This document shows positions 1,631-42,741 of a stretch of DNA of 64,000 nucleotides, piece by piece. The notes under the pieces are model-generated. The model had not been told where the DNA came from. It worked only from the letters and a program-made list of their open reading frames with translations, and ran no database searches. The DNA is taken from positions 252 to 64,251 of the forward strand of contig DASQZM010000008.1 of NCBI GenBank assembly GCA_035638695.1, written 5' to 3'. Both the position numbers and the translations under genes were made by a program. This DNA comes from Gammaproteobacteria bacterium (GTDB lineage: Bacteria > Pseudomonadota > Gammaproteobacteria > UBA5335 > SLRW01). Each line of letters begins with the position of its first letter. Positions within the stretch are counted from its first letter, which is position 1.

Positions 1631-1765
1631 CCTCGTTTCCGACAGGGGCGATGCTATCGGGCGCCCGGCGCGGGAATCTTGACCTGCGTCAAAAGGCGAT
1701 CGATCGGGGCGGCGGGCAGGGCCACGGGACTCCGAAACGTGGCGTTACCCCTTGTCCGGTTAGTA
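1631..1765 (+). repeat. short (~135 bp) copy A of the palindromic MITE-like repeat family
   Basis: Right end GTGGCGTTACCCCTTGTCCGGTTAGTA (1739-1765) matches the family terminus. Weaker inverted partner CGTTTCCGACAGGGGCGATGCTA at 1634-1656. Confidence 0.5.
1651..1692 (-). promoter_or_regulatory. candidate FNR/Anr-dependent (class II) promoter of cydAB
   Basis: Perfect palindrome TTGAC-CTGC-GTCAA at 1679-1692. Minus-strand -10-like TAGCAT at 1656-1651. If the TSS is ~1644, the box centre is about 41.5 nt upstream of it. Confidence 0.5.
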
Positions 1766-1834
1766 GAATGGGCAACCAGTTTGTCACCGCTCCGCGTGCC
1801 GCGGGGTCGACTTCTTGCGAAATCGAGGCAGCGA

Positions 1835-2689
1835 ATGGCTGAAACCAGACGATTTGAAGGTACCGACACCTACGTCGCCACCGAAGAGCTGATGATGGCG
1901 ATGAACGCGGCGATCACGCTGCAGCGTCCCCTGCTGGTCAAGGGCGAGCCGGGTACCGGCAAGACCATGCTGGCCGAGGAGGTGGCGCGGGCGTTGGGAC
2001 TGCCGCTCTACCAGTGGCACATCAAGTCCACCTCCAAGGCCCAGCAGGGGCTGTACGAGTACGACGCGGTCTCGCGGCTGCGCGACTCGCAGCTGGGCGA
2101 GGAGAAGGTCCACGAGATCTCGAACTACATCGTCCAGGGTCCGCTGTGGCGCTCGTTCGAGTCGGACGAGCAGCCGGTGCTGCTGATCGACGAGGTCGAC
2201 AAGGCGGACATCGAGTTCCCCAACGACCTGCTGCGCGAGCTGGACCGCATGGAGTTCTACGTCTACGAGACGCAGCAGCTGGTGCAGGCGAAGTACCGTC
2301 CGATCATCATCATCACCAGCAACAACGAGAAGGAGCTGCCGGACGCGTTCCTGCGCCGGTGTTTCTTTCACTACATCCGCTTCCCGGACAGGGAGACGAT
2401 GCAGGAGATCGTCGACGTGCACTTCCCGGGTCTGAAGCAGGACCTGGTGCGCGAGGCGATGGAGGTGTTCTTCGACCTGCGGGAAGTCCCGGGCCTGAAG
2501 AAGAAGCCCTCGACCTCGGAGCTGCTGGATTGGCTCAAGCTGCTGATGGCCGAGGACATTCCCCCGGAGGCGCTGCGCGGGAAGGACGCCAGCAAGGCGA
2601 TCCCGCCGCTGTACGGCGCGATGCTCAAGAACGAGCAGGACGTACAGCTGTTCGAACGCCTCGCGTTCATGGCTCGTCGCCAGGCCTGA
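1835..2689 (+). CDS. MoxR-family AAA+ ATPase (AAA_5/CoxD-like)
   Basis: Walker A GEPGTGKT, Walker B LLIDEVD. Start moved to ATG 1835 (MAETRRFEG). Confidence 0.9.
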   Translation: MAETRRFEGTDTYVATEELMMAMNAAITLQRPLLVKGEPGTGKTMLAEEVARALGLPLYQWHIKSTSKAQQGLYEYDAVSRLRDSQLGEEKVHEISNYIVQGPLWRSFESDEQPVLLIDEVDKADIEFPNDLLRELDRMEFYVYETQQLVQAKYRPIIIITSNNEKELPDAFLRRCFFHYIRFPDRETMQEIVDVHFPGLKQDLVREAMEVFFDLREVPGLKKKPSTSELLDWLKLLMAEDIPPEALRGKDASKAIPPLYGAMLKNEQDVQLFERLAFMARRQA

Positions 2690-2758
2690 CTCCTCCCGCC
2701 TATGCCGCCGTAACCGGCGGCGCCTGACGGTCGGGCGCGACCACCGAGGGGAAAGCGC

Positions 2759-3937
2759 ATGCTGATCGACTTCTTCTTCACGCTCAGGGGCGCGGGTCTG
2801 CCGGTCTCCATTACCGAGTACCTGACCATGCTGGAGGCGCTGAAGGCGCGCATCGTCTCCTGCAGCGTGGACGACTTCTACTTCCTCGCCCGCGCCAGCC
2901 TGATCAAGGACGAGACCCAGTACGACAAGTTCGATCGCGTCTTCGGCGCGTACTTCCGCGGCATCGAGGACCTCGCCCGGCTGATGGTCGAGAAGGAGAT
3001 CCCCGCGGACTGGCTGGCGCGGCAGGCGGAGCTCAACCTCTCCGACGAGGAGAAGGCGATGATCGAGTCCATGGGCGGCTGGGACAAGCTCATGGAAGAG
3101 CTGCGCAAGCGCCTGGAAGAGCAGCGAGAGCGCCACCAGGGCGGCAACCGGATGATCGGTACCGCCGGTACCTCGCCCTTCGGCGCCTACGGCTACAATC
3201 CTGAGGGGATCCGCATCGGCCAGGCGGGCGGACGCAACCGCAGCGCCGTGAAGGTCTGGGACAAGCGCGAGTTCCGCAATCTCGACGACACCGTCGAGCT
3301 CGGTACCCGCAACATCAAGGTCGCGCTCAAGCGCCTGCGCGAGTTTGCCCGCGAGGGCACCGAGCTGGAGCTGGACCTCGACGACACCATCCGCTCGACC
3401 GCCCGCAACGGCGGGTACCTGGACATCCGCATGGTCCCGGAGCGGCACAACCGGGTGAAGGTGCTGCTGTTTCTCGACGTCGGCGGCTCCATGGACGAGC
3501 ACGTGCGCGCCTGCGAGGAGCTGTTCTCGGCGGCACGCAGCGAGCTGAAGCACATGGAGTATTTCTACTTCCACAACTTCATCTACGAATCGGTGTGGAA
3601 GGACAACCGCCGCCGGCACAGTGACCGGATCCCGATCGCCCGGATCCTCAACACCTACGACCGGGACTACAAGGTGATCGTCGTGGGTGACGCGACCATG
3701 AGTCCCTATGAGATCCTGTATGCCGGTGGCAGCATCGAGCACATGAACGAGGAGACCGGGGCGACCTGGCTGAAGCGCCTGCTGGAGCACTTCGACCACG
3801 TGGTATGGCTCAACCCCGAGCCGGAGCGCCGCTGGGAGCATACCCCGTCGCTGCAGATCACGCGGGAGTTGATGGAGGACCGGATGTACCCGCTGACCAT
3901 CGAGGGCCTGACGCGCGCCATGCGCGCGCTCAAGTGA
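2759..3937 (+). CDS. VWA domain-containing protein (CoxE-like partner of the MoxR ATPase)
   Basis: 392 aa. N-terminus MLIDFFFTLRGAGLPVSITEYL. MIDAS-like LFLDVGGSM. Lies directly downstream of the MoxR gene. Confidence 0.85.
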   Translation: MLIDFFFTLRGAGLPVSITEYLTMLEALKARIVSCSVDDFYFLARASLIKDETQYDKFDRVFGAYFRGIEDLARLMVEKEIPADWLARQAELNLSDEEKAMIESMGGWDKLMEELRKRLEEQRERHQGGNRMIGTAGTSPFGAYGYNPEGIRIGQAGGRNRSAVKVWDKREFRNLDDTVELGTRNIKVALKRLREFAREGTELELDLDDTIRSTARNGGYLDIRMVPERHNRVKVLLFLDVGGSMDEHVRACEELFSAARSELKHMEYFYFHNFIYESVWKDNRRRHSDRIPIARILNTYDRDYKVIVVGDATMSPYEILYAGGSIEHMNEETGATWLKRLLEHFDHVVWLNPEPERRWEHTPSLQITRELMEDRMYPLTIEGLTRAMRALK

Positions 3938-3958
3938 CGGCTCCCGGGGGGGCTCGCC

Positions 3959-5314
3959 TCAGGCGTCCTCGACGTGCCGGAGCAGCTCTCCCGGCTGCAG
4001 GCCGTAGGCACCCGTCTCGAGCGAACGCTTGATGTCCAGCCGCTGGCCCGTGCGGGTCTGCGGGGTGCGGGAGAGATCCACCTCGTAGGGCGCGTCGAGA
4101 CGATGGTGCTCCTCGTCGAGCACCACCAGGACCTTCGGCCGCAGGCGCTCCTCATTGGTCGCCACGACCACGCCTACCTCCTCGGTGCTGAGCTCCACCA
4201 GGCTGCCGATCGGATAGATGCCGATGCAGCGGATGAACCGGTCCACGAGCTCAGGTTCGAAGAACCGTCCCCGGCCCCGGTACAGGGCCGCCGTGGCGTT
4301 AACCGGCGAGCTGGCTTTCTTGTAGGGGCGCTGGCTGATGATCGCATCGTAGGTGTCGCACACCGACACGATGTGAGTCAGCGGGTGGATCTGGCCGCCC
4401 GCCACCCCTTCCGTGTAGCCACTGCCGTCGAGGCGCTCGTGGTGAGAGAAGACTACGTTGCGGCTGCTGACAGGGACGCGCTCGGAGCCGTCGACGATCT
4501 CCACGCCGAACTCCGGGTGCTTGCGCATGATCTCCATTTCCTGCGCGGTCAGCTGTCCCGGCTTGTTCAGCACGCTGTCCGGGATATGCATCTTCCCGAT
4601 GTCATGCAGGAACGCACCGAAACCCAGTTCCAGCAGGGTTTCCCGGGGCAGGCCCAGGTGCCGGCCGAGGGATATGCTGAGGATGCACACCGACAGTGAG
4701 TGGAGGTAGGTATACTCGTCGCGCCTCTTGAGCCCCGACAGCCAGACCAGGGCGTCGGGATTGCGCAGGATGCTCTCGGTGATGTATTCGACCGATTCGC
4801 GCGCGGCCCGCGTATCGAGGCTGCGCCCGTTGCGCGCATCCTCCATCTGCCGCCGCACCAGGCTGCGGGTTTCCAGGATCAGCGGGCGCGCGGCGCGGAC
4901 TTCCTGGTCCAGGGAAGTGGTCACGGGGGGCGGATGCTGGGGTGCCCGGCCCAGCTGCCGGGCCAGCCTCGCCTCCCAGGGAACGGCGCGTGTGAATCCG
5001 TTGCCACGCTCGCGGCGGGAAACCGGCTGGATCCTGCGGATTGCGCTCGGCGCGGTGCCGCGCTCCGCCGGGTGCGCCACCGCCCCGCCGGGACCGCGGG
5101 TCTGGGCGCCGGCCGTGGGCGGAGCCTCCCCGGCGTGCACGTAAACATACCGGCAGGTGCTCTGCACTTCCGCGACCTGTTGCCAGTTCTCCAGCACGAA
5201 TCCCTGGAAGGGAAACGGAGACTCCAGCCAGGGGCGGTCCAGGCGTGACACGTACATCCCCGGCATCAGGTCCGAAACGTATACCTTGCGTTCTTCGCTC
5301 ACGTCCGACTCCAT
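3959..5314 (-). CDS. HD-GYP domain phosphodiesterase with DUF3391-like N-terminus
   Basis: HDIGK and HHERLDGSGY motifs. Start taken at MESDVSEERKVYVSDLMPGMYV. Confidence 0.85.
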   Translation of the reverse strand: MESDVSEERKVYVSDLMPGMYVSRLDRPWLESPFPFQGFVLENWQQVAEVQSTCRYVYVHAGEAPPTAGAQTRGPGGAVAHPAERGTAPSAIRRIQPVSRRERGNGFTRAVPWEARLARQLGRAPQHPPPVTTSLDQEVRAARPLILETRSLVRRQMEDARNGRSLDTRAARESVEYITESILRNPDALVWLSGLKRRDEYTYLHSLSVCILSISLGRHLGLPRETLLELGFGAFLHDIGKMHIPDSVLNKPGQLTAQEMEIMRKHPEFGVEIVDGSERVPVSSRNVVFSHHERLDGSGYTEGVAGGQIHPLTHIVSVCDTYDAIISQRPYKKASSPVNATAALYRGRGRFFEPELVDRFIRCIGIYPIGSLVELSTEEVGVVVATNEERLRPKVLVVLDEEHHRLDAPYEVDLSRTPQTRTGQRLDIKRSLETGAYGLQPGELLRHVEDA

Positions 5315-5447
5315 GCTGGCCGCGGGGAGAACTTCCCGCGCCGCGACCCTGCGGACATCGTATGATATTTTAAGCGAATTCTGAACGCCCGCGCGCGCAT
5401 CCGGCCCCGTTTGGGGGGAACCCTGAATTCCGTGCCCGGAGGTCCCG

Positions 5448-6341: not shown

Positions 6342-6369
6342 CCGGCGCGGTGGCCACGCCGCCTGCAGC

Positions 6370-7152: not shown

Positions 7153-7253
7153 GACGTCGTCCTCCCGGGGTCGTGTAATCGGGCGCGACCCGGCCGGCCG
7201 CCAGGCGGCCGCGTCGGGTATTGGACTCATTCTTGACCACTGGGCGGGCGGGT

Positions 7254-7418
7254 TCAACCGCACGCGGGGTGGCTGTCGTCCATTGTCGGGGACAGGGAGT
7301 TCTCCAGCACTCTCGGCAGGGCGCTGCGGCAGTCATGGTGCGGCAGGTGCCCGGCGCCGGGCACGACCACCTCCCGCGCGTGCGGGAAGCGGTCCCGGCG
7401 CCGGTCCAGCGACGACTC
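7254..7418 (-). pseudogene. remnant of an alpha/beta hydrolase C-terminus (no start codon, ~50 codons)
   Basis: Minus-strand frame reads LDRRRDRFPHAREVVVPGAGHLPHHDCRSALPRVLENSL, the classic catalytic-His region (PGAGH) of alpha/beta hydrolases. An in-frame stop lies 4 codons upstream. Confidence 0.35.
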
Positions 7419-7422
7419 TCAG

Positions 7423-8631: not shown

Positions 8632-8716
8632 GCGCCGGCCCGCTCCGGCCGAGTCCCCGTGTCCGACATGGCAGGCCAGTGTATCAGCCCGCGCCGGTGC
8701 TACCGCTACCGCACGA

Positions 8717-9026
8717 GCACAACCGGGAAGAGAGGTACATGTCCGACAAGATTCGGGCCCGGTAGGATCGGAAAGGCCAACGTGGCGATCATCGTTGGGG
8801 CCAGCGGGGCGTGGGCGAAGCCATGGCCGGCCGCCCGGGTGGGTGGGTGCCGGCGTGCTGGTCGGCAGCTGCCGCCCGGACCCCGTGGACGCGGCCGCCG
8901 GGCGGGTGCGGCGCGATCGGCTCGAGGACAGCCCCATCCCGCGTCACGCCGGCGATGCCGCATCCGGGCGTTGCTCGCTGTAGCAGCACGCTCCGAAGCG
9001 TGGCATTACCTCTGACCGGGTTAGTA
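8717..9026 (+). repeat. diverged ~310-bp copy B of the MITE-like repeat family
   Basis: Right end GTGGCATTACCTCTGACCGGGTTAGTA (9000-9026). Degenerate left end GCACAACCGGGAAGAGAGGTACATGTCC (8717-8744). Internal blocks (GCGAAG, CCCCGT..GGACG, TGTAGC) occur in the same order as in copy D. Confidence 0.5.
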
Positions 9027-9155
9027 TCATGCCGGAAGTCGGCGGTGCCGGGCGGATCCCCGCGCGACGCCGCCTCGTCACCCGGATGTTCGCCGGGCGC
9101 CGCCGCCGGGGCTGTGTTCCGGGGCGGTGGGTAACCGACTGGAGGTACCCCCACC

Positions 9156-13267: not shown

Positions 13268-13415
13268 CGCCGTGCGCGACGCGCTGTGCCCGTACTGGGA
13301 ATCGCGTTCCGTCAACGTGCCTCCCTGTGCCCACTCTCCGTGGCGCCTGGACCGGGTTAGTAATTCTGCCCCGCCGTCCCGGATACCGGGGTGGCGGGAT
13401 GGTCTTGTACCCTCG

Positions 13416-14786
13416 TCAGGTACGCCCGTTCCGTGTGCCTGGCTGATCTCCGCTGGGGCTTCCGGCTTCCGCGTTCCCCGCCACCAGCTGCCCCAGCGTC
13501 CGGCCCTCGAGGGCGGCGCGGGTGGCATCCGCGACCGCTGTGCGCACGTCGGCCACCGGCGGCGCCAGACTCGCGGGCCGCGGCCGCGGCAGATCGGGAT
13601 GCCGGTCGCGGCTCGCCTCGATCACGTCCAGCAGGGCGATCGACGCGGGATCCGCGCCCGGCACGAACCCGGGTGCCGGCTCATCGATTTCGAGCAGCAG
13701 TCCGTGCGCGACCAGGGCGTTCAGCACATTGCCCATCTGGTAGCCGGGGATACCCAGCAGGGCAGCCAGCACGTCCTCGTCCGGGGGCGGGTCGCGGCGC
13801 CGGAACCGCAGCGCGGTCCAATACATGATCGCCAGGGCCACGCCTTCCGGGTCCGCCGTTTCCAGATCGTGCGGCAACGGATTGCGGCTGACAAAGTGCG
13901 GATTCTGCACGTAGAAGGCGATTTGTGCACCCACGAGGAAGACCAGCCAGCTTATGTATATCCATACCAGGGCCAGGATGACGACGGCGAAACCGGAGTA
14001 CACGAGGTCATAGCGAACTGAGGAAGCGGCAAACGACGCGAAGATCATGCCGATCAGCTTCCAGGCGACGCCGGCGATAATGCCGCCGGCCAGCGACGGT
14101 TTCAGCCGCACCCGGGTGTTCGGCAGCAGCAGGTAGGTGATGGTGAAGGCCGCGACCACCAGCAGGTAGGGCAGCAGCTCTCCGAACAGGTAAAGCGCGA
14201 GGCCGAAGGGCTCGATCCCCCGCAGGGCCGCCACGACATGGTGGCTCAGCAGAGAGGCGGTGGTCCCCACGGCCGCCAGCACCAGCACGGGGCCGATCAC
14301 GATCACGCTCAGGTAGCCGCTGAAACGCTGGACCAGACTGCGGCGACGCTGGATGCGCCAGATCCGGTTGAGCGCGTCCTCGATCTTCTGGATCAGCGAG
14401 ATCACCATCGCGATCAGCAACACCAGCCCGACCGAGCCGAGCACCCCCACGCGCACGCGTTCTACGAAGCCGATAATGTGATGGGCGAGCTCCGCCCCCT
14501 TGGGCCCGAGTGGGGCGAAGAAGGTGAGCAGCAGAGGCTCGATCTCGGCGTGAATGCCGAACGCCTTGAGTACCGAAAAGCTCAAGGCCAGCAGCGGAAC
14601 CAGGGCGAGCAGCGTGGTGTAGACGAGGCTCATGGCGCGCATGGTCAGCTCGCCCGAGAACAGGTCGCGCAGCACGTTGAACCCCAGGCGGAGCCCGTGC
14701 AGGGCGTGCGCCTGGAGGCGTGGCATCGTGTCCGCTTCGCGCGCCCATAGCAGGCGCGCGATCAGATCCAGTGGATTTTCCTTCAT
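13416..14786 (-). CDS. YihY/BrkB family inner membrane protein with C-terminal extension
   Basis: 456 aa, multiple TM segments. N-terminal pattern LRLGFNVLRDLFSGELTMRAMSLVYTTLLALVPLLAL. Confidence 0.85.
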   Translation of the reverse strand: MKENPLDLIARLLWAREADTMPRLQAHALHGLRLGFNVLRDLFSGELTMRAMSLVYTTLLALVPLLALSFSVLKAFGIHAEIEPLLLTFFAPLGPKGAELAHHIIGFVERVRVGVLGSVGLVLLIAMVISLIQKIEDALNRIWRIQRRRSLVQRFSGYLSVIVIGPVLVLAAVGTTASLLSHHVVAALRGIEPFGLALYLFGELLPYLLVVAAFTITYLLLPNTRVRLKPSLAGGIIAGVAWKLIGMIFASFAASSVRYDLVYSGFAVVILALVWIYISWLVFLVGAQIAFYVQNPHFVSRNPLPHDLETADPEGVALAIMYWTALRFRRRDPPPDEDVLAALLGIPGYQMGNVLNALVAHGLLLEIDEPAPGFVPGADPASIALLDVIEASRDRHPDLPRPRPASLAPPVADVRTAVADATRAALEGRTLGQLVAGNAEAGSPSGDQPGTRNGRT

Positions 14787-24451: not shown

Positions 24452-24690
24452 GGGGGTATGGTCAGGCTTTACAGCCGCGGGGTGCTTTGCCGGGCGCGCG
24501 CGTGCGCGGCCCGGTGGCGCCACGCCAGGCGCACACGATACCGCCGGCGGCGCGCGCGGCTTCCTGCGGGCGCTGCCTGGGCCGCCGCGGACGGCGGTGG
24601 TCGTCGGCCGTCTAGCGCCACTACACCCCGTGCTCGCGCCTTGCCGCGATGGCGCGGCCAGTCGCCCGGGGCTGACAATACCCCGGAAAA
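24452..24690 (+). repeat. degenerate copy G of the MITE-like repeat family
   Basis: GGACGGCGGTGGTCGTCGGCCGTCTAGCGCC...GTGCTCGCGCCTTGCC aligns with GGACGGCGCTGCTCGTCGGTCGTGTAGCGCC...GCTGCTCGCGCCTTGCC of copy D. Left end is GGTCAGGCTTTACAGCC. The right end is eroded, so limits are approximate. Confidence 0.4.
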
Positions 24691-24841
24691 GCACGGTTTT
24701 TACCAGAGAACGGCCCGGCGGGGAACCGCGGCGTGAGCCGGCCCCGTTTCGCGGCGACCGCAGCAAGACCTTATACTCCGGCCATCACTCCGCACGGCCA
24801 CGCCGCCGGTAGGCCGTGCCGTCGCACGAGGGAGGTTATCC

Positions 24842-30868: not shown

Positions 30869-31429
30869 ATGGACGAGATCTACGTTTCCGTCGACATCGA
30901 GACCGACGGCTTCACCCCCGGCGCCAACAGCATGCTCTCCCTGGGGGCCGCCGCCTACCTGGACGACAAGACCCTGCTGGACACCTTCAGCATGAACCTG
31001 GAGACCTTGCCCGGGGCCTCCGCGCATCCCGCGACCATGAAGTGGTGGCAGGGCTTCCCGGAGGCCTGGGAGGCCTGCCGGCGGGACCCGCGGCCTCCCG
31101 GCGAGGTGATGCGTATATTCGCCGACTGGGTCCGGGCGCTGGAGGGGTATCCGATCTTCGCCGGCTACCCGGTCTCGTTCGATTTCAGCTTCGTCTCCTG
31201 GTACCTGCACCACTACGCTCACGACAATCCGTTCGGCTTCGCCGCGCTCGACATCAAGAGCTACGCCATGGCGCTGACCGGGGGTACCTTCCGGCACACC
31301 ACCAAGCGCGGCATGCCGGCGGAGTGGTTCGACGATCTCCCGCACACGCACAGGGCGCTGGACGACGCCATCGAGCAGGGTGCACTGCTGTGCAATCTGC
31401 TGGCCCAGCGCCGGCGGAACGGCGCGTAA
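30869..31429 (+). CDS. DEDD-type 3'-5' exonuclease
   Basis: VSVDIETDG (ExoI), YPVSFDFSF (ExoII), HRALDDA (ExoIII). Confidence 0.8.
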
Positions 31430-31489
31430 CCGGAACACGCGCGTCCCGCAGGGGTCTCACCAGGGTACGTGAGACGACGGCACGCCGAT

Positions 31490-31761
31490 TACTAACCCGG
31501 TCAGGGGTCATGCCACGTCTCAGGGAGCGCGTGGGCGGTGAGGACCAGGGCGGCGGGAGCGAAGGCGTCGCAGCGCTACGACAAGCGAGCGCAACGCGGT
31601 CATCGCCGCTCACGCGCTCTCCCGCAGGGCGCTCGCCTCGCCCCGTCTGGACGGCGCTGCTCGTCGGTCGTGTAGCGCCCGACTCCACTGCGCTGCTCGC
31701 GCCTTGCCAGACAGACCGACAGGAGCGCTGAGATGAGGCGTTACCCCTGACCGGGTTAGTA
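31490..31761 (+). mobile_element. best-preserved copy D of a palindromic MITE-like element (272 bp, 35-bp TIRs, no ORF)
   Basis: TACTAACCCGGTCAGGGGTCATGCCACGTCTCAGG matches the reverse complement of the right end at 30/35 positions, with the first 19 perfect. The arms remain partly complementary further inward. Confidence 0.7.
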
Positions 31762-31784
31762 CGGACAATCACCGCCGAGGATCG

Positions 31785-32321
31785 ATGAGACCCGCCCACG
31801 TTGTCATGCTGTGCGTGCCCCTGGCACTGGCCGCCGCCGGTGTCCGGCCCGCGGCTGCCGGCGACCTTGCTGCACGCGCCTCGACCGCGCGGAACAGGTG
31901 GTACACGTCCCGGCAGGTGCAGCGGGGCGCGGTAGTCTATGGTCAGCATTGTGCGCGCTGTCACGGCGACCGCGCCCAGGGCGGACCGGGCTGGCCGAAG
32001 CCGGGCGCGAAGGGCACCGTGCCCGCGCCGCCGCTCGACGGGACGGGGCACACGTGGCTGTGGCCACTGCGGCGCCTACGGCACGTGATCGCTCACGGGC
32101 TGCCCATGGATCATGGCAGAATGCCGGCGTGGAAAGGAAAGCTCAGCGACAGCCAGGTCAATGCCACGATCGCGTGGTTCCAGGCATGGTGGCCGGATCC
32201 CGTGTACCGCCGCTGGCGCCTGATCCAGCGCCGTGCGCACAGGCTCCGTCACCGACGCGCCGGGCGTGGTCCGCGGGGGCTTGTGCAGCGCAAAGCCCCG
32301 CCGCCGCGAAAGGCTCCCTAG
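31785..32321 (+). CDS. class I c-type cytochrome, secreted
   Basis: Signal peptide, haem motif CARCHG, distal GRMPAW. The Arg-rich C-terminal ~35 aa look atypical. Confidence 0.8.
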   Translation: MRPAHVVMLCVPLALAAAGVRPAAAGDLAARASTARNRWYTSRQVQRGAVVYGQHCARCHGDRAQGGPGWPKPGAKGTVPAPPLDGTGHTWLWPLRRLRHVIAHGLPMDHGRMPAWKGKLSDSQVNATIAWFQAWWPDPVYRRWRLIQRRAHRLRHRRAGRGPRGLVQRKAPPPRKAP

Positions 32322-32403
32322 ACGCCCCCGCTCGTTCGCCCGCTGGTGTGAAGCGGGTGCGGGCGAATTGTCGGCAGGCGCGCGCGCGCCGGGGGCGGCG
32401 ACC

Positions 32404-33189
32404 TTGAGCTGGTGGGGCAAGGCCCTGGGCGGGGCCTTCGGGTTCGTCGTGGGCGGACCTGTCGGCGCGGCGGTCGGTGTCGCCCTCGGGCACGGGATGG
32501 ACCGCAATGCCCGGGGCGCGGTGCCGTGGTCGCGCGACGTCGAGCGCACGCGGCACGCCTTCTTCAGCTCGGTGTTCGCGGTCATGGGGCATCTGGCCAA
32601 GGCGGACGGACGCGTCTCGCGCGACGAGATTCGCGCGGCCGAGCGCGCGATGCGCTACATGAACCTGAGCGCCGGGCAGCGCCGTGCCGCCATCGATCTG
32701 TTCCACCAGGGCAAGCTCCCCGATTTCGATCTCCGGGCTGCACTGGGGCATTTCCGGCGCCATTGCCAGCGCCATCCCGAGCTGGTGCGGCTGTTCCTGG
32801 AGCTGCAGCTGCGCGCGGCCCTTGCCGACGGCGACCTGGAGCCCGGGGAACGGGCGGTGCTGCTTCGCGTGTGCGAGGCACTGGGCGTGTCCGCGTACGA
32901 GTTCGAGCGCCTGGTCAACCTGGTGCGCGGGTTCGGCGGCGGGCGCGCCGGGCCGTCCAATCGACCGGCGCCTGCCGCCAGGCTCCGGCGCGCCTACGAA
33001 GTGCTCGGAGTGCAGCCGGGGGCCGAACCCGACGAGGTCAAGCGCGCGTACCGGCGGCTGACGAGCCGGACGCACCCGGACAAGCTCGTCTCGCGCGGGC
33101 TGCCGGAGGAAATGATCAAGCTCGCGGCAGAGCGCACGCGCGAGATACGCGACGCCTACGATACGATCCGGGAGGCGCGCGGGTTCTGA
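32404..33189 (+). CDS. djlA: co-chaperone DjlA (TM + TerB-like + J domain)
   Basis: LSWWGKALGGAFGFVVGGPVGAAVG N-terminus. C-terminal J domain AYEVLGV...HPDK. TTG start is inferred. Confidence 0.8.
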   Translation: MSWWGKALGGAFGFVVGGPVGAAVGVALGHGMDRNARGAVPWSRDVERTRHAFFSSVFAVMGHLAKADGRVSRDEIRAAERAMRYMNLSAGQRRAAIDLFHQGKLPDFDLRAALGHFRRHCQRHPELVRLFLELQLRAALADGDLEPGERAVLLRVCEALGVSAYEFERLVNLVRGFGGGRAGPSNRPAPAARLRRAYEVLGVQPGAEPDEVKRAYRRLTSRTHPDKLVSRGLPEEMIKLAAERTREIRDAYDTIREARGF

Positions 33190-33237
33190 CGACCCGGACC
33201 CCCGCCTCGGTTCCACCCACGACAGGGAGGTGACGGC

Positions 33238-33708
33238 ATGTCGCACGCAGGCTGGGCGGTGGCGCTGGTACTGCACGTACTTTCGGCAGTGGTGTGGGTC
33301 GGTGGCATGTTCTTCGCATACATGGCCATGCGTCCGGCCGTGGTCCAGGTGCTGCAGGGGAGCCAGGGCCTGGAGCTGTGGAACCGCACCTTCGAGCGCT
33401 TCTTCCGCTGGGTCTGGGTGGCCGTGGTCCTGCTGCCGCTCACCGGCTACTGGATGGTCTACAGCATGTTCGGCAACCTGGCCACCGCGGGTGTCCACGT
33501 CGAGCTGATGCAGGGGATCGGCTGGTTTATGATCCTGCTGTTCCTGCATCTGTACTTCGCGCCGTACCAGCGTCTCCGGCAGGCTCTCGAGCGGGGCGAT
33601 CGCGAGCAGGCGGGTGCGAGCCTGGGGCAGATCCGGATCATCGTCGCCACCAACCTGGCGCTGGGGCTGATCGTGGTGGTGATCGCGAGCGCCGGGCGCC
33701 TGCTGTAG
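33238..33708 (+). CDS. CopD-like / DUF2269-type membrane protein
   Basis: 156 aa, 4 [27 protein letters not shown]. Confidence 0.7.
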
Positions 33709-33818
33709 CGGCGCGCCGGCAGGGGCCTTCCAACTCATTGGAACCCTTACAATACCGCCCGCGATCGGGTAACTTCCGTCCCTGCGGGGCGGCCCGCAAC
33801 GCGGAGACCGGAGCACCC

Positions 33819-34508
33819 ATGACCGACTACCGGATCGCACCGTCGATTCTTTCCGCCGATTTCGCGCGCCTGGGCGAGGAAGTCAGCGCCGTGGTCGAGG
33901 CCGGGGCGGACATGGTGCACTTCGACGTCATGGACAACCATTACGTGCCCAACCTCACGGTGGGGCCGATGGTCTGCTCCGCCCTGCGCGACTACGGGCT
34001 CACGGTACCGATCGACGTCCACTTGATGGTCAGTCCGGTGGACCGCCTGGTGCCGGAGTTCGCACGGGCCGGCGCCGAGTTCATCAGCTTCCACCCCGAG
34101 GCGACCCGGCACGTGCACCGGACCCTGCAGGTGATCCGCGAGCATGGCTGCCGCCCGGGGCTGGTGTTCAATCCCGCCACCCCCCTGGACCACCTCGAGT
34201 ACGTCATGGACAGCGTCGACATGGTGCTGCTGATGTCGGTCAATCCGGGCTTCGGCGGGCAGCAGTTCATCCCGTCGACCCTGGAGAAGCTCCGCCGGGC
34301 CCGGCGCATGATCGATACCAGCCCGTACCAGATCCGCCTGGAGGTCGACGGGGGCATCAAGGTGGACAACATCGCCGAGGTGGCCGCCGCGGGGGCGGAC
34401 ACGTTCGTTGCCGGTTCGGCGATATTCGGTGCCGACAGTTACGAAGGGGCGATCGCCGCGATGCGGCGCGAGCTTGCGACCGCCGACGGCGGCGGGGGCC
34501 GGGCGTGA
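33819..34508 (+). CDS. rpe: ribulose-phosphate 3-epimerase
   Basis: [22 protein letters not shown]...[14 protein letters not shown]. Confidence 0.95.
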
Positions 34509-35254
34509 ATACCGCGGCCCGGGCGGCGCCTACCGGGGCGCCGGAATGCCTGCGGAGTGGCGACTGGCGCCCGCGCTACCTGCTGTTTGATCTCGACGGC
34601 ACCATCGTCGACAGCGCTCCCGACCTCACGCGCGCGGTGAACGCGACCCTGCGCGAGCTGCATCTGCCCACCCGCAGCGAGGAGGAGGTGCGCGCCTGGG
34701 TTGGCAATGGCGCGCGCAGCCTGGTGCGCCGGGTGCTGGTCGGCAACATGGAGGGATGGCCGGACCGGTCCCTGCATCAGCGGGCCTACGAGCGCTTCCT
34801 GGGGCACTACCAGGACACGCTCTGCGACCGCACAAGGCCCTACCCCGGCGTGGCGGAGGCCCTCGCGCGACTGCAGCAGCGCGGCTATGCGCTTGCCTGC
34901 GTGACCAACAAGCCGTCGCGTTTCACGCTGCCGCTGCTGGCGGCGCTCGGGCTGGACGTGCGCTTCGGCGTGGTGGTCAGCGGCGATACGGTGGCCACCA
35001 AGAAGCCGGATCCGCTACCCCTGTACCATGCCGTCACCGGCCTGGGCGCGCCCGACCCGCGCCGGGCCTGCCGCGAGCAGTCCCTGATGATCGGGGACTC
35101 CGTGACCGACATCGACGCGGCCCGCGCGGCCGGCAGTATTGTAATCTGCGTGCGCTACGGTTATAACCACGGCAGGGACATCGCCGAGGCCCGGCCCGAC
35201 GGTGTCATCGATTCGATGCAGCAGCTGTGCGAGTTGCTCGAAAGGGCTGTCTGA
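34505..35254 (+). CDS. gph: phosphoglycolate phosphatase (HAD)
   Basis: [12 protein letters not shown] motif I. rpe-gph synteny with a 4-nt overlap. Confidence 0.9.
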
Positions 35255-35257
35255 ACG

Positions 35258-35341
35258 ATGCGTCCGCTGTTCCCGCGAGTGAGCCCCCTGCCGAAACGTA
35301 CGGCGGGATGGCGATGGTGGTGCTGGCGTCCGTCCAACTGA
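35258..35341 (+). promoter_or_regulatory. candidate trp leader peptide ORF (27 codons, 4 Trp)
   Basis: ATG 35258. [27 protein letters not shown], stop at 35339-35341, 61 nt before trpE. GC-rich hairpins follow. Confidence 0.55.
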
Positions 35342-35402
35342 ACGGGCCGGGCGGCGGCGCTCGTGTCGCCGCAAAAACCACCGCCTTTCGGGAGCGAATC
35401 CG

Positions 35403-36893
35403 ATGCATCAGGAGCAATTCGATCTTCTCGCCCATCAGGGCTACAACCGCATCCCCTTGATGACCGAGGTCCTGGCGGACCTCGATACCCCGCTCAGCAC
35501 CTACCTGAAGTTGGCGGACGGGCCGTACTCCTACCTCTTTGAGTCGGTTCAGGGCGGCGAGAAGTGGGGCCGCTACTCCATCATCGGCCTGCCTGCGACC
35601 ACCGTGCTGAAAGTGCGCCGGCACGAGATCGCCGTGGAGCGAGAGGGCGAGGTGGTCGAGCGCACCCGGGCCGACGATCCGCTGGCCTGGATCGAGGCGT
35701 TCCGGCAGCGCTACCGGGTGGCGCCTGTGGAGAGGCTGCCGCGCTTCACCGGCGGCCTGGTGGGCTATTTCGGCTACGATACCGTGCGCTACATCGAGCC
35801 GCGGCTGCGCTTTCCGGACAAGGCCGATCCGCTGGGCACCCCGGACATCCTGCTGATGGTGTCCGACCAGGTTCTGGTATTCGACAACCTCAGCGGCCTG
35901 CTCTATGTGGTGGTGCATAGCGACCCGGCCGAGCCCGACGCGTTCGCGCGCGGCTGCCGCCGGCTGGAAGCGCTGGTCGAGTCGCTGCGCCAGGCAGTTC
36001 CGGCGGCGCGCAGCCTGGCGCCGGGGCCGGGGCCGGCGCGGCACGCGTTCGAGTCCAGCTTCAGTCAACAGGGCTACGAGCAGGCGGTCGAGCGGATCAA
36101 GCGCTACATCATCGACGGCGATGTCATGCAGGTGGTGCCCTCGCAGCGCATGTCGGTCAGCTTCGACGCAGCGCCGCTGGATCTCTATCGCGCGCTGCGC
36201 TGCCTCAACCCCTCGCCGTACATGTTCCATCTGAACCTGGGGGAGTTCCACGTCGTCGGTGCCTCTCCCGAAGTGCTGGTGCGGGTCGAGGACGGTCAGG
36301 TGACGGTGCGGCCGATCGCCGGTACCCGTCCGCGCGGCGCGACCGACGAGGAGGACCGCGCTCTGGAGGAGGAGCTTCTGGCCGATCCCAAGGAGCGGGC
36401 CGAGCATCTGATGCTCATCGATCTCGGGCGCAACGATGTCGGCCGGGTGAGCGAGACCGGCAGCGTCGAGGTGACCGAGAACATGGCGGTGGAGCGCTAT
36501 TCGCACGTGATGCACATCGTCTCCAACGTGCGCGGCCGGCTGCATCCGGGGTTGGGGCCGATCGACGCCCTGCGCGCCACCTTCCCTGCCGGCACCCTGT
36601 CCGGGGCACCCAAGATCCGCGCGATGGAGATCATCGACGAGATCGAGCCCGTACGCCGGGGGGTGTATTCCGGGGCCGTGGGCTACCTGGGCTGGAACGG
36701 CAATATGGACACCGCGATCGCCATCCGCACCGCCGTGATCAAGGACGGTCAGCTCCACGTGCAGGCGGGCGGCGGCATCGTGGCCGACTCGGTGCCACGG
36801 CTGGAGTGGGAGGAGACGCTCAACAAGCGCCGTGCGCTGTTCCGCGCCGTGGCCATGGTCGAACAGGGGCTCGACGAGGAGGGGCGGGCATGA
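35403..36893 (+). CDS. trpE: anthranilate synthase component I
   Basis: 496 aa. [21 protein letters not shown] and GAVGYLG motifs. Confidence 0.95.
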
Positions 36894-37483
36894 TCCTGAT
36901 GATCGACAACTACGATTCCTTCACCTACAACCTGGTCCAGTACCTCGGTGAGCTGGGCGCGGCCGTCGAGGTGGTGCGCAATGACGCGGTCGGGGTGGGG
37001 GAGATCGCCCGGCGCGCGCCGGCGGGGATCGTCATCTCGCCCGGTCCGTGCACCCCGGACGAGGCCGGAATCTCGGTCGATGCCGTGCGGCGCTATGCCG
37101 GCGCCATCCCGATTCTCGGCGTTTGCCTGGGCCACCAGAGCATCGGCCGGGCCTTCGGAGGACGGGTGGTGCACGCGCGCCGGGTGATGCACGGCAAGAC
37201 CTCTGCCATCCACCATGCGGGTGCCGGGGTCTTCCGCGGCCTGCCGGACGGTTTCACCGCCACGCGTTATCACTCCCTGGTGGTCGAGCGGGACAGCCTT
37301 CCGGACTGCCTGGAGGTCACCGCCTGGACCGAGACGCCGGACGGGGGCTTCGAGGAGATCATGGGCCTGCGCCACCGGGAGCTGGCCGTCGAGGGGGTGC
37401 AGTTCCATCCCGAGTCGATCCTGACGGACCACGGGCACGGGCTGTTGCGCAACTTTCTCGAGTCACTGCCGGTGACCGCCTGA
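36890..37483 (+). CDS. trpG: anthranilate synthase component II (glutamine amidotransferase)
   Basis: [39 protein letters not shown] overlap with trpE. Confidence 0.95.
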
Positions 37484-37521
37484 ATTCACGCCGCGCTCCG
37501 CATGGAGGGAGGAATCCGAGC

Positions 37522-38556
37522 ATGGATATGCAGCAGGCGATACGCGCGGTGACCGAAGGACGCAACCTCTCCACCGAGGAGATGGGCGCCGTGATGCGCG
37601 GGATCATGACGGGGCAGGCAACCCAGGCGCAGATCGGCGGATTCCTGATCGGCCTGCGAATGAAGGGGGAAACCGTCGACGAGATTGCGGCCGCTGCGGC
37701 CGTGATGCGCGAGCTCGCCACGGGGGTGCGGCTGGCGAGCCTGGAACACGTGGTTGACACCTGCGGCACCGGCGGGGACTCCAGCCGGATCTTCAATGTC
37801 TCGACCGCGACCGCATTCGTGGTGGCGGGGGCCGGCGGGCGTGTTGCCAAGCACGGCAACCGCTCGGTTTCCAGCCAGTCGGGCAGCGCCGACGTACTGG
37901 AGGCGGCCGGCGTTCGGCTGGACCTGAGCCCGGAGCAGGTCGCGGCCTGCATCGAGACCGTCGGGGTCGGGTTCCTGTTCGCACCCCTGTATCACGGGGC
38001 GATGCGCCATGCGGTGGGGCCGCGGCGGGAAATGGGGGTGCGCACCGTGTTCAATGTGCTGGGGCCGCTGACCAACCCTGCCGGGGCGCCGAACCAGCTC
38101 CTGGGAGTGTTCAGTGAGGCCTGGGTGGAGCCGCTCGCGCAGGTGCTGTGCAAGCTCGGCAGCCGACACGTGATGGCGGTTCACTCGGCAGACGGCCTGG
38201 ACGAACTCAGTATCGCGGCCCCCGCCGCAGTGGCCGAGCTGCGGGACGGACGGGTGCACCGCTACACACTCGATCCGCGGGAGCTCGGCCTGGCTCACCC
38301 CGACATCGAGGCGCTGCGGGTGCGCGACGCCGAGGAAAGCCTGGCCATGATCCGGCGCGTGTTCGAAGGGGAAACCGGAGCGGCGCGCGACATGGTGCTC
38401 CTGAACTCCGGCGCCGCAGTCTACGTCGCGGGACTCGCGGAAAGCCTCGATAACGGGATCGACCGGGCGTGCGAGGCGATCGACGGCGGCGCAGCGGCAC
38501 GGCGCCTGGATCACCTGGTGCGCTTCACCCGGGCGCTGGAGGAGTCGCAGGCATGA
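37522..38556 (+). CDS. trpD: anthranilate phosphoribosyltransferase
   Basis: VDTCGTGGD and KHGNRSVSS motifs. Confidence 0.95.
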
Positions 38557-39353
38557 GCGGCGAGATGATCCTGGAGCGCATCCTGCGGCACAAGCGCGCC
38601 GAGGTGAGCGACGCTTCGCGCCGCGTCCCCCTGGAGACGCTGCGGCGCCGCGCGGCCGGCGCTGGGGCGACCCGGGGCTTCGTCGCTGCCTTGCGGTCAC
38701 GGGCGGCGGCCGGCGAGCCGGCGGTGATCGCGGAGATCAAGAAGGCGTCGCCGAGCCGGGGGGTGATCCGCGCGGATTTCGACCCTGCCTCCATCGCACG
38801 CAGCTACGCCGGCGGCGGTGCGGCCTGTCTTTCGGTCCTCACCGACCGGGAGTTCTTCCAGGGCGGCCCGGAAGCACTGCAGGCGGCGCGCACCGCCTGC
38901 AGCCTGCCGGTGTTGCGCAAGGACTTCATCATCGCCCCCTACCAGGTCTTCGAGGCCCGGGCGATGGGTGCGGACTGCATCCTGCTCATCGCGGCGGCGC
39001 TGGACGATCCCGCGCTGTTCGAGCTGGCCGGGCTCGCCACGGAGCACGGCATGGACGTGTTGGTCGAGGCGCACGATGCTCAGGAGCTCGAGCGGGCGCT
39101 GCGCCTGCGACTGCCGATGGTGGGCATCAACAATCGCGACCTGCGCAGCTTCGAGACGTCGCTGGACCGGACCCTGGAACTGCTGCCGCGGATTCCGGAA
39201 GGGACCCTGGTGGTCACCGAGAGCGGCATCCACACGGACGCCGACATCCGGCGCCTGCGCGCGGAGGGGGTGGGCGCCTTTCTGGTCGGCGAGGCGTTCA
39301 TGCGGGCCGCCGACCCGGGAACGCGCCTGGCGGAGCTGTTTGGTACCGGGTAA
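38553..39353 (+). CDS. trpC: indole-3-glycerol phosphate synthase
   Basis: [26 protein letters not shown] motifs. 4-nt overlap with trpD. Confidence 0.95.
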
Positions 39354-39372
39354 CGCCGCGCGGGCGGGCTAG

Positions 39373-40011
39373 CTAGCGCGTTCCGAGTACCACGATGGTT
39401 TTCCCGGACACGCTGATCAGGCTCTGCTCTTCCAGGCTCTTGAGCACGCGCCCCGCCATCTCGCGGGAGCAGCCGACGATCCGCGCGAGCTCCTGGCGAC
39501 TGATGCGCAGCTGCATGCCGTCCGGGTGGGTCATCGCATCGGGCTGCTCGCACAGGTCCAGCAGCGCGCGGGCGATCCGGCCGGCGACATCGAGGAAGGC
39601 CAGGTCCTCGACCTTCCGGTTGGTGCGGCGCAGGCGCGCGGCCATCTGCGAGGCGAGCTCGAACAGCACGTCCGCATGCTCCATCGCCAGCTTGCGGAAG
39701 CGGTTGTAGGCGATCTCCGCCACGCGGCAGGGGGTGCGGGTGCGGACCCAGGCGCTGCGGGGCGTGTCGCCGCAGAACAGTCCCATTTCGCCGAAAAAAT
39801 CGCCGCGATTGAGGTAACTGAGCACGATCTCGTTGCCGTTGGCGTCCTCGATCAGCACCGCGACCGATCCCTCCACCATCAGATACAGCGTCTCCGGGCG
39901 CGTGCCGCCCTGGATGATCAGGTGGTGCTTGGGGTAGCTGCGGACGTGGCAATGGGCCAGGAGCCAGTCCAGGACCGGATTGCCCATGATCTTGGCTTCG
40001 GTGGCACTCAT
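39373..40011 (-). CDS. crp: cAMP receptor protein (Crp/Vfr)
   Basis: Near-collinear with remembered Vfr/CRP sequence: LDWLLAHCHVRSYPK, GDFFGEMGLF, RQELARIVGCSREMAGRVLKSLEEQ. ATG 40086 is an alternative start. Confidence 0.9.
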   Translation of the reverse strand: MSATEAKIMGNPVLDWLLAHCHVRSYPKHHLIIQGGTRPETLYLMVEGSVAVLIEDANGNEIVLSYLNRGDFFGEMGLFCGDTPRSAWVRTRTPCRVAEIAYNRFRKLAMEHADVLFELASQMAARLRRTNRKVEDLAFLDVAGRIARALLDLCEQPDAMTHPDGMQLRISRQELARIVGCSREMAGRVLKSLEEQSLISVSGKTIVVLGTR

Positions 40012-40152
40012 CGTGGGCTTGCTTTCGGTGGCCGCGACATGATGGACAGGATTCTTTGAATCCGGAGCAGCTTCCAGAGTATACATGACCGCTCGCTGAG
40101 CCTACGTTAGTCAGCGGCTGTTACATTTTCACCCTTTTACGGGGGCGAGCTG

Positions 40153-40578
40153 ATGAAGGCGCGTATCAAGCTGATAGAAGGCGTGACATTCGCCGCCGAA
40201 TCGGACAGCGGGCACGCCATTGTGATCGACGGCTCGCCGCAACACGGCGGCCGTAACCTGGGACCGCGGCCGATGGAAATGCTGCTGCTGGGAATGGGCG
40301 GATGCACCGCCTTCGATGTGGTCAACATCCTGCGCAAGGCGCGTCAGCCGGTGGCGGACTGCGAGGCCCTGCTGAGCGCCGAGCGGGCCGATACCGAACC
40401 ACGCGTGTTCACGCGCATTCACGTGCATTTTATCGTCACCGGTGCCGGGCTTAGGGAGCACCACGTACGGCGTGCCGTGGACCTGTCGGCCGAGAAGTAC
40501 TGCTCGGCCTCGATCATGCTTGGCAAGACCGCGCAGATCACCCACGATTTCGAGATTCGCGCGCCCGCACGCGCCTGA
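40153..40578 (+). CDS. OsmC family peroxiredoxin-like protein
   Basis: RPMEMLLLGMGGCTAFDV and EKYCSAS motifs. Confidence 0.9.
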   Translation: MKARIKLIEGVTFAAESDSGHAIVIDGSPQHGGRNLGPRPMEMLLLGMGGCTAFDVVNILRKARQPVADCEALLSAERADTEPRVFTRIHVHFIVTGAGLREHHVRRAVDLSAEKYCSASIMLGKTAQITHDFEIRAPARA

Positions 40579-40609
40579 GCCCGGGCGTCACGCCCGCGCC
40601 CTGCGGGGC

Positions 40610-40636
40610 GTGGCATTCCCTCTGACCGGGTTAGTA
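40610..40636 (+). repeat. solo terminus (copy C) of the MITE-like repeat family
   Basis: GTGGCATTCCCTCTGACCGGGTTAGTA. Only ~30 nt separate it from the osmC-family stop, so no full element fits. Confidence 0.55.
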
Positions 40637-40811
40637 AAATGGCCGATCCGCGTCCGCGCGCCGACCCGGCCTTCCGGCCGCGACCGAAGGGAGGCGACGG
40701 GAGCCGGAGATGCGTTTCCCGCGGGGGCAAATTGGTGGATAATGCGCGCCTCGCAGGCGCGGTGCGGACGGGTATTCGGGGGCGCGGCACGACCGACGTG
40801 GAGGTATCGAG

Positions 40812-41621
40812 TTGGTAAAACCACTGCAAAAACTGCAGCTGCATGGTTTTAACAACCTGACGAAGACGCTCAGCTTCAATATCTACGATATCTGCTATGC
40901 GGTTTCGGAGGAGCTCAGTCGCGAGTACATCGACTATATCGACGAGGTGTACAACGCGGAGCGCCTGACCCAGATCCTCTCCGACGTCTCGAACATCATC
41001 GGGGCGAACGTGCTGAACGTGGCCCGACAGGACTACGAGCCACAGGGCGCGAGCGTGACCATGCTGATCTCCGAGGAGCCGGTCCGGCGCGAGGAGTATT
41101 CCAACTCCGAATCGCCCGGGCCGCTGCCCGAGGCGGTGCTTGCGCATCTGGACAAGAGCCACATCGCGGTCCACACCTACCCGGAGAGTCATCCGCAGAA
41201 CGGTGTCGCCACTTTCCGTGCCGACATCGACGTCTCGACCTGCGGGCTGATCTCGCCGCTGAAGGCATTGAACTACCTGATCCACAGCTTCGATTCGGAC
41301 ATCGTCACGATCGATTACCGGGTCCGTGGCTTCACCCGCGACGTGCGCGGCAAAAAGCACTTCATCGATCACAAGATCAACTCGATCCAGAATTTCATGT
41401 CCCGCGACACGCGCGAGCGCTACCAGATGCTGGACGTGAACGTCTACCAGGAGAACATCTTCCACACCAAGATGCTGCTGAAGGAGTTCGACCTCGACAA
41501 CTACCTGTTCGGGATCAACGCAGGGGACCTGTCGGGCAAGGAGCAGGAACGCATCCGCAGACAGCTCCGGCACGAGATGCTGGAGATGTTCTACGGGCGC
41601 AACGTCCGCCGTATGTACTGA
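40812..41621 (+). CDS. speD: S-adenosylmethionine decarboxylase proenzyme (E. coli type)
   Basis: [23 protein letters not shown] and the ES cleavage-region context. TTG start. Confidence 0.9.
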
Positions 41622-41663
41622 CCACGGCGGGAACGACCGCCCCCGATTCCATCCCGGAGCCGG

Positions 41664-42335
41664 TCAGAGGTGGTACGTGCTCGTGGTCATCAGCTTCGAC
41701 AGCCGCCGCATCAGCCAGCGCACGGGCGCGGGGAGTTCGCGGCCGCCGGCCCGGCGCGCCGTTTCGCCGTGGTGGGCCTCGTCATACTTCATCCGGTCGA
41801 GAATCGCGCGGCTGCGCAGGTCCTCGGGCGGCAGGCGGTCGAGGTGATTGTCGATGTGGCGGATCACCTGGTTCTCGGTTTCGGCGACGAAGCCGAGGCT
41901 CCAGCGGTCGCCGAACACGCCGGCCAGCGCCCCGATGCCGAGAGATCCGGAATACACCAGCGGCGCCAGCAGGCTCGGGCCCGCGCCCAGGTCCTCGAGC
42001 CGGCGTCCGCACCAGGCCAGGTGCTGGTGCTCATCGCGTGCCGACTGGCGCAGCGCCTCGCGGATCTGCGCGTCGCGCCCGAACCACGACTGCGACTGGT
42101 ACAGGGCCTGCGCGCTGATCTCGCCGGCGTGGTTCACGCGCATCAGGCGCGCCGATTCGCGGCGCCCGGCCGGGCCCAGCTCGGTTTCGGGGATGCCGTC
42201 GTCCGGGTGGGGTGAGCCCGCATCCACGGGGTTGCAGAACACCGTGCGCAGGGCCTGGTCCATTTCCATCAGGATGCGGTCGCTGAGGCGGTAACGCCGG
42301 CCGGGGCTTTCGCTGGTCGTGCGAGTAGCGTACAT
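41664..42335 (-). CDS. coq7: demethoxyubiquinone hydroxylase (di-iron Coq7)
   Basis: LMRVNHAGEISAQALYQSQ, DEHQHL and DEAHH motifs. Confidence 0.9.
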   Translation of the reverse strand: MYATRTTSESPGRRYRLSDRILMEMDQALRTVFCNPVDAGSPHPDDGIPETELGPAGRRESARLMRVNHAGEISAQALYQSQSWFGRDAQIREALRQSARDEHQHLAWCGRRLEDLGAGPSLLAPLVYSGSLGIGALAGVFGDRWSLGFVAETENQVIRHIDNHLDRLPPEDLRSRAILDRMKYDEAHHGETARRAGGRELPAPVRWLMRRLSKLMTTSTYHL

Positions 42336-42411
42336 GCCGTCGGGATTCCCCGTGCGGTGACTTGGCGACGGCTCACGTTAGGCAATCCGCAGGGTTCTGG
42401 CAAGCCCCGCT

Positions 42412-42440
42412 CTGGTAACCGTGTATAGTATTTGTATAAT
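42412..42440 (+). promoter_or_regulatory. candidate sigma70 promoter reading into repeat E and the DUF481 gene
   Basis: Perfect TATAAT at 42435-42440 in an otherwise GC-rich region. Weak -35 CTGGTA 17 nt upstream. Confidence 0.35.
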
Positions 42441-42473
42441 CTCTTCCCGGCGCGCGGCGGGCCCGGCCGTGCG

Positions 42474-42741
42474 CACTGGTCCGGTCGGAGGTATTGTTAC
42501 CTCTCACAGGGCGCGTACGCGGTGAGGGCAAGGCGCGGGAGCGAAGGCGCAGCCTTGCCCCGTCGAGTGCGCGCAACGCCGCGATCGCCGTTCACGTACC
42601 GGAACTTCGGGTGTTTCCGTCGCCCCGTCGGGATGGCGTTGCCCGCCGGCCGTGTAGGGTCACGACAGGCCACGCCTCGCGCCTTGCCAGACAGACCGAC
42701 AGGAGCGCTCAGAAGTGGCATTCCCACAGACCGGGCGGGTG
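42474..42741 (+). repeat. copy E (~268 bp) of the MITE-like repeat family, both termini eroded
   Basis: Shares GCGGTGAGG..GGGAGCGAAGGCG, GCGCGCAACGC..ATCGCCG.TCACG, TCGCCCCGTC.GGA and CTCGCGCCTTGCCAGACAGACCGACAGGAGCGCT with copy D, in the same order. Confidence 0.6.

Follow-up and report, generated by a model that had tools for sequence, protein, structure and literature searches.

The 64,000-nt stretch of DNA analysed in this study (the window; C8:252-64251) belongs to a 98-contig, 3.44-Mb metagenome-assembled genome (MAG) and carries seven copies or ends of a repeat, six of which lie 5' of genes on the + strand (Table 1). The repeat is a miniature inverted-repeat transposable element (MITE), and its bare ends are probably retained in this genus as parts of gene promoters. 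By Pfam, the genes behind the six copies encode an AAA/MoxR-type ATPase, a GST, a zinc-ADH/QOR protein, a cytochrome c, an AdoMet_dc protein and a DUF481 protein, in agreement with the names given in the original prediction, a first reading of the letters of the window. A pattern search of the window recovered the repeat coordinates and termini of that prediction, together with its distances to the + strand gene starts and the junction hexamers of copies A, B and C. The six copies that it had listed are all present, and a seventh end, also on the + strand, had been overlooked. The terminus GTGGCRTTMCCYCTGACCGGGTTAGTA, for which no match is expected by chance, occurs at 9000-9026, 31735-31761 and 40610-40636 on the + strand and at 31490-31516 on the - strand, and the inner block of the element is found at 31696-31729 and 42676-42709, on the + strand in both cases. 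The two arms of copy D are 88% complementary, and the only open reading frames (ORFs) across this copy are spurious overlapping ones. Copy G had been grouped with copies D and E, with which it shares the + orientation, but it is a member of a second subfamily, whose terminus differs.

Table 1. Repeat copies and ends in the window and the genes that they face.
Feature	Position	Strand	Structure	Junction hexamer	Neighbouring gene
Copy A	1739-1769	+	lone terminal repeat, 1739-1765 (degenerate)	TAGAAT, 1764-1769	69 nt 5' of MoxR-type ATPase gene
Copy B	9000-9030	+	lone terminal repeat, 9000-9026	TATCAT, 9025-9030	129 nt 5' of GST gene
Seventh end	13338-13362	+	terminal-repeat-like, CCGTGGCGCC-TGGACCGGGTTAGTA	TAATTC	faces 3' end of minus-strand gene 13416-14786
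Copy G	24520-24698	+	degenerate fragment, second subfamily, terminus CTGACAATACC...GG		~143 nt 5' of quinone oxidoreductase-like gene
Copy D	31490-31761	+	full-length family-1 MITE, 272 bp, 34-nt terminal inverted repeats, TA at both ends		23 nt 5' of cytochrome c start
Copy C	40610-40640	+	lone terminal repeat, 40610-40636	TAAAAT, 40635-40640	175 nt 5' of speD
Copy E	42474-42741	+	full-length, older, degenerate, ~73% identity to D		34 nt 5' of DUF481 gene

The repeats represent a non-coding palindromic MITE of ~270 bp, with two subfamilies that have related termini. Using BLAST and a profile hidden Markov model (HMM) built from 18 near-full-length copies aligned end to end, 89 family loci were found in the genome, 24 of which are near full-length according to the profile HMM. 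The element unit is a long imperfect palindrome with termini TA-CTAACCCGGTCAGRGGTAATGCCAC, most full copies start and end with TA, and the full element folds into a long hairpin (-166.7 kcal/mol, z = -7), while an Rfam scan of positions 31300-43000 at E ≤ 1 matched no family. The second subfamily has its interior in common with family 1 and carries the terminus CTGACAATACCTTCGAGAAGATTGGTA, identical to that of family 1 at 17/27 positions; 55 such ends are present in the genome versus 0 in the reversed-sequence control (e.g., C12:59205-59231, C54:15151-15177 and, in the window, 24672-24698). A 72-bp mini-element outside the window (C65:77128-77199) consists of two terminal repeats back to back. 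Also outside the window, IS630-type (DDE_3) transposase genes at C93:42754-43806 and C67:8898-10259 lie between repeats of the CTTAAAAC heptad type, and one of these two genes directly adjoins a family-1 lone end 5' of a pmbA/tldD-like gene. IS630-type genes came up in the search for a parent transposase, but their ends differ from those of the family.

Among 41 relatives, the family was detected only in the one species of the same genus (the sister species), with at least 26 matches. Likewise, when 185,579 GTDB species genomes were scanned for the exact terminus pattern, which is strict and could miss distant relatives, the only hit beyond this genome was the sister-species MAG. The two species are syntenic, with ~87% nucleotide identity. 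Copies A, B and C are present at orthologous sites of the sister species, copies D and E are absent from the syntenic sites, and some copies of the sister species are absent from this genome. Because copies occur in one species and not in the other, the element has been mobile within the genus. The empty site of copy E in the sister species contains a single TA (CCG-TA-TCAT), with E itself having a degenerate CA...TG; the empty site of copy D is too diverged for a target duplication to be read.

To describe how the termini are placed, sequences matching the outermost 15 nt of the repeat and ending in TA were collected, 105 from the genome versus 15 from a reversed-genome control. Of these 105 matches, 61 are intergenic and resemble the repeat in its inner half as well; 23 of them are ends of long elements and 38 are lone or truncated ends (hereafter lone ends). 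The outward direction of a lone end leads to a gene start in 37 of 38 cases, compared with a fraction of 0.579 for random intergenic positions and directions (p = 2.7e-8), and in tandem contexts, where a gene start lies on one side and a gene end on the other, they face starts by 18:0 (p = 7.6e-6). Without the inner-half filter, the ratios of start-facing to other ends are 18:0, 32:6 and 53:15 at ≤1, ≤2 and ≤3 core mismatches, respectively, and all of the 27 lone ends bearing a TAnnAT hexamer (the terminal TA plus four flanking bases) face gene starts. This hexamer is found at 23/38 lone ends, whereas it occurs at 4.9% of 19,859 intergenic TA dinucleotides (p = 7e-21). It is also present at 5/23 ends of long elements (p = 0.005 against background) and at 9/55 ends of the second subfamily, again versus 4.9% (p = 0.0014), and it is commoner at lone ends than at the ends of long copies (Fisher p = 0.004). 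The distance from junction to gene start ranges from 2 to 226 nt with a median of 73 nt; at five junctions, the ATG follows the hexamer by 6-8 nt and no Shine-Dalgarno sequence is present, a geometry as in leaderless mRNAs. Ten of the lone ends face genes identified by NCBIfam and Pfam as argH, yqgE, proC, lgt, uvrB, fdxA, rph, grxD, coaD and tldD. The same lone-end arrangement exists in the sister species, including at glyA-, gltX-, dnaX- and coaBC-like genes as judged from their N-termini.

Orthologous sites in the sister species were identified for 33 of the 38 lone ends. Where the terminus is missing from one allele, the hexamer is retained, as in GCAGTATAATG, TTGGCA-17-TATCAT, CCGTATCAT (the empty site of copy E), GGGTTACAAT and GCTACAATG. 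The -10-like hexamer therefore predates insertion, with the element entering at its 5' TA, and the earlier suggestion that the element itself creates the hexamer does not hold. At three or four sites, a family-1 terminus in one species and a family-2 terminus in the other occupy the same junction (C12:59231 versus L040; C53:35734 and C45:107128 versus G001), which therefore look like insertion hot spots, and at one orthologous site (L017; C93:34255-34518 versus G001:C4:38933-38957) the interior of the element is oppositely oriented in the two species. The use of one junction in opposite orientations or by different subfamilies points to recurrent insertion at hot spots, to inversion or to replacement. 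The element-free alleles, the hot spots and the surplus of hexamers next to intact copies show that the element targets -10-like boxes, inserting with preference at the 5' TA of pre-existing TAnnAT hexamers. At another site (L035), this genome carries the entire element and only a lone end is present in the sister species, which points directly to an origin of lone ends by deletion. A reciprocal situation is seen at C53:53399-53413, where the last ~10 nt of the repeat are present here and the full element is present in the sister species (G001:C29:10164-10433), the deletion end points having GAC/CAC microhomology.

A footprint of conservation was obtained from 21 alignable orthologous lone-end pairs with at least 17/27 identity, many of which have private non-consensus states in common and are therefore of common descent. 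Inward (upstream) of the repeat, identity is 50% and the sequences become unalignable further in. Within the repeat, identity is 88% in GTGGCATTACC, with TGGC at 95-100%, falls to 71% in the middle 10 nt and rises to 98% in TTAGTA; it is 95% in the adjoining nnAT and 77% in the flank from +5 to +40. If the hexamer is taken as a -10 element, the first conserved block lies at about -37 to -28. Among the window copies, homology to the sister species begins roughly at the inner boundary of the repeat in copy B, and in copy C GTTAGTAAAATG is intact there and the inner part has diverged at 9/27 positions. Orientation, position and conservation together show that the TAnnAT hexamers behave as expected of real -10 boxes, each one that abuts a terminus facing a gene start 2-226 nt away. 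The original prediction that the terminus is selectively conserved, with TAnnAT 5' of genes, is strongly supported by the genome-wide census and the cross-species footprint, except that it had been made for one particular end, and both end types are in use. Around one lone end and its leader (C93:42620-42780 versus G001:C35:2670-2825), ~130 nt are 100% identical compared with the average of ~87%, perhaps because of a recent exchange or of very strong constraint.

The common polarity that had been proposed for the copies does not hold. Copies A, B and C retain just a terminal inverted repeat, which reads alike whether it comes from the left or the right end of the element, so that they cannot take the polarity of copy D; interior polarity can be read only in copies D, E and G (3/3 rather than 6/6). 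The argument that six of six copies in one direction has a probability of 1/32 therefore falls, the lone repeat having no interior polarity and the genome-wide ratio being even. Genes were called with a codon-usage ORF scorer (3099 genes, 86% coding). Of the elements in tandem intergenic regions, 22 have their right end toward the gene start and 22 their left end, with full-length copies at 5 versus 9; a ratio near 1:1 is what the original prediction had itself named as refuting it. No association was observed between the orientation of long copies and local GC skew (counts of 5/5/7/7). Both end types are found as lone ends (20 left and 24 right). Based on the subterminal CGTGGC and nhmmer scores, copies A, B and C fit an inverted left end slightly better: copy B scores 24.9 bits as a left end versus 16.8 as a right end, and copy C 22.3 bits as a left end only. 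When the left and right subterminal consensus were compared without gaps with A, B and C, the outcome was indecisive, so that their assignment as left ends depends solely on CGTGGC and these scores. Because both ends carry the same repeat, either end would work, and the interior orientation of the element would be irrelevant.

Considering the 18:0 asymmetry and the two-block footprint, we propose that the lone ends are probably kept by selection as the upstream half of hybrid promoters, a reading that we hold with some confidence though well short of certainty. The element inserts preferentially at the 5' TA of an existing TAnnAT hexamer, leaving the complete hexamer abutting one terminal repeat. 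Most of the element body would later be deleted, as one locus pair shows directly, and the lone or truncated ends that survive are almost exclusively those on the gene-facing side, where purifying selection would keep the promoter-facing end. In such a promoter, the 27-nt terminal repeat would supply the -35 and spacer half, with GTGGCATTACC at -35, TTAGTA+nnAT at the extended -10/-10 and a variable 10 bp between them. The hybrid promoters would drive ~25-40 mostly housekeeping genes, including argH, proC, lgt, uvrB, rph, coaD, grxD, fdxA, tldD, yqgE, speD and the GST gene. A broader version of this proposal, in which a MITE homing to -10 hexamers and carrying a portable -35/spacer cassette replaced the upstream half of 25-40 core-gene promoters in the genus (~5-9% of gene-facing TAnnAT), with the cassette kept by selection after loss of the body and perhaps recognised by a common repeat-binding protein, is more speculative, and we regard it as possible but doubtful.

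Several observations weigh against the promoter role of the repeat. A scan with the canonical sigma-70 consensus found nothing at copies A, B and C. The best -35-like hexamer of the repeat, GTGGCA, lies 19 bp from TAnnAT, and at the usual 17 bp the hexamer is GGCATT; in the second subfamily, CTGACA matches TTGACA at 5/6 positions and is likewise 19 bp from the terminal TA. A de novo profile of native promoters, built from all gene-facing TAnnAT of this genome, yields a TTG signal at the standard spacing of 17 bp that is too weak for the repeat to be scored with it. The footprint pairs were filtered for at least 17/27 identity and the ends were ascertained by consensus similarity in one genome, which inflates the identity of the repeat as a whole but leaves the two-block shape and the unfiltered nnAT unaffected, and the middle positions that vary between species vary among paralogous copies too. 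The gene calls come from a crude caller of our own, and at least one end in the window (13338-13362) is directed at a gene end, as are a few weaker matches. Moreover, no cognate transposase was found in this 98-contig MAG, from which the parent copy may be missing; its four IS630-type (DDE_3) genes have CTTAAAAC-type ends rather than family-1 or family-2 termini. A sigma-54-type reading of TGGCAT-N5-CTGA was also considered and was rejected by eye, the -12 GC being absent.

Target preference could account for much of the pattern without any function of the repeat, in that the element would home to the TA of -10 boxes and remain inert there, the genes being driven by the hexamer, by other promoters or by read-through, and the conservation of the repeat reflecting ascertainment and a recent split. 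The hexamers already present at terminus-free alleles, the lack of a canonical -35 at canonical spacing in the repeat and, at copy C, both a second conserved -10-like block (TGGATAATG) nearer to speD and an inner repeat of which just GTTAGTAAAATG is kept are in line with this explanation. However, neutral decay would leave lone ends equally on the far side in tandem contexts, where none were observed, and it does not predict a TGGC block that is far better conserved between species than the spacer and the sequence further in, nor a TAnnAT hexamer that is commoner at lone ends than at long-copy ends. We therefore consider an inert repeat rather unlikely, but as an alternative to be taken seriously.

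Less likely still, the 27-nt repeats may be operator sites bound by a transposase-derived or host DNA-binding protein that co-regulates the gene set, the two blocks then being half-sites instead of a -35 and an extended -10. IS630/Tc1-type transposases bind bipartite sites, the two conserved blocks are ~20 bp apart from centre to centre, and paralogous sites resemble each other over the whole 27-mer, putative spacer included, far more than the spacers of unrelated promoters do. On the other hand, the two species have diverged freely in the middle of the repeat, the gene set consists of functionally heterogeneous housekeeping genes, and neither a candidate binding protein nor a cognate transposase was found in the MAG. 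As for the original prediction of a 5' module that depends on orientation, in which one particular end and a constant interior polarity go with outward promoters and leader hairpins processed by RNase III, it agrees with the + orientation of D, E and G 5' of + strand genes and with the very stable fold of the full element. Its polarity part is refuted by the even genome-wide census, by the use of both lone-end types and by the opposite orientations at one orthologous site, and no hairpin is left in the lone ends and no Rfam family was matched, making this explanation highly improbable as a whole.

The proposed promoter arrangement can be compared with several known systems. Correia elements (CREE/NEMIS) of Neisseria and the family described here both lie mainly 5' of genes, and both are able to form hairpins in transcripts. 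They have no sequence similarity, and the present element is ~270 bp and GC-rich, whereas Correia elements are 100-155 bp and AT-rich. Also unlike Correia elements, bare 27-nt ends survive here, are common to two species and lie 5' of housekeeping genes. With a different terminus, length and base composition, and an uncultured gammaproteobacterial MAG as host, the family falls outside the Correia elements as defined by a 26-bp terminal repeat, a length of 100-155 bp and a Neisseria host. MITEs derived from IS630/Tc1-mariner elements, such as RUP of pneumococcus, resemble the family in having TA at both ends, terminal inverted repeats, no ORF, many copies and presence or absence between relatives, but the ends of the four IS630-type genes of this genome are unlike these repeats. 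Like the family, Correia elements are palindromic MITEs without coding sequence that have -10-like flanks; they duplicate a TA on insertion, as may also be the case here, and their junctions form promoters, as is proposed for the present ends (PMC9330008, in part). It is established that the ends of insertion sequences (ISs) or MITEs form hybrid promoters and that Correia elements prefer TA targets resembling a -10 hexamer (reviewed in PMC9330008). Hybrid promoters at the ends of IS1, IS2, IS257, IS256, ISAba125 and others combine an outward -35-like sequence in the terminal repeat with a -10 hexamer of the target (PMC9330008), as proposed here, though the -35-like hexamer of the present repeat (GTGGCA) is a poor one at a distance of 19 bp. 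The IS-end cases are mostly recent single activating insertions of a full IS 5' of resistance genes, whereas here a MITE would be involved at dozens of core-gene promoters, with its body lost. The mechanism is thus already known for IS ends and Correia elements, and it is the apparent scale, with many core genes and loss of the element body, that would set the present family apart.

If the lone repeats are working promoter halves, a mobile element would have rewired the promoters of bacterial housekeeping genes on a genome scale, and the transposon would since have been pared down to its useful 27 bases. A TA-targeting transposon would have been steered to -10 boxes in a GC-rich genome, since usable TA sites lie there, which predicts the positions of such elements in other GC-rich bacteria. 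Should the repeat prove inert, the family would still be a clean example of an insertion-site bias that mimics function.

A few further features lie close to the copies in the window. A perfect FNR/CRP-type palindrome, TTGAC-CTGC-GTCAA, is located at 1679-1692 in the region that separates the MoxR-type gene from cydA (minus strand, 60-1622; encoding cytochrome bd subunit I), with its centre ~65 nt 5' of the cydA ATG, and it is conserved in the sister species. The sister species has ~188 extra bases between the cydA start and this FNR-like box (G001:C2:224288-224475 versus window 1638), which are not MITE-like by eye. An extended -10-like sequence (TGTATAAT, 42433-42440), also conserved in the sister species, points toward the DUF481 gene, and copy E would sit in the leader of a transcript starting from there. 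Downstream of the lone end of copy C and ~60 nt 5' of speD, AATTGGTGGATAATGCGCGCCTCGC (40727-40751) is identical in both species and may be a second or alternative promoter of speD.

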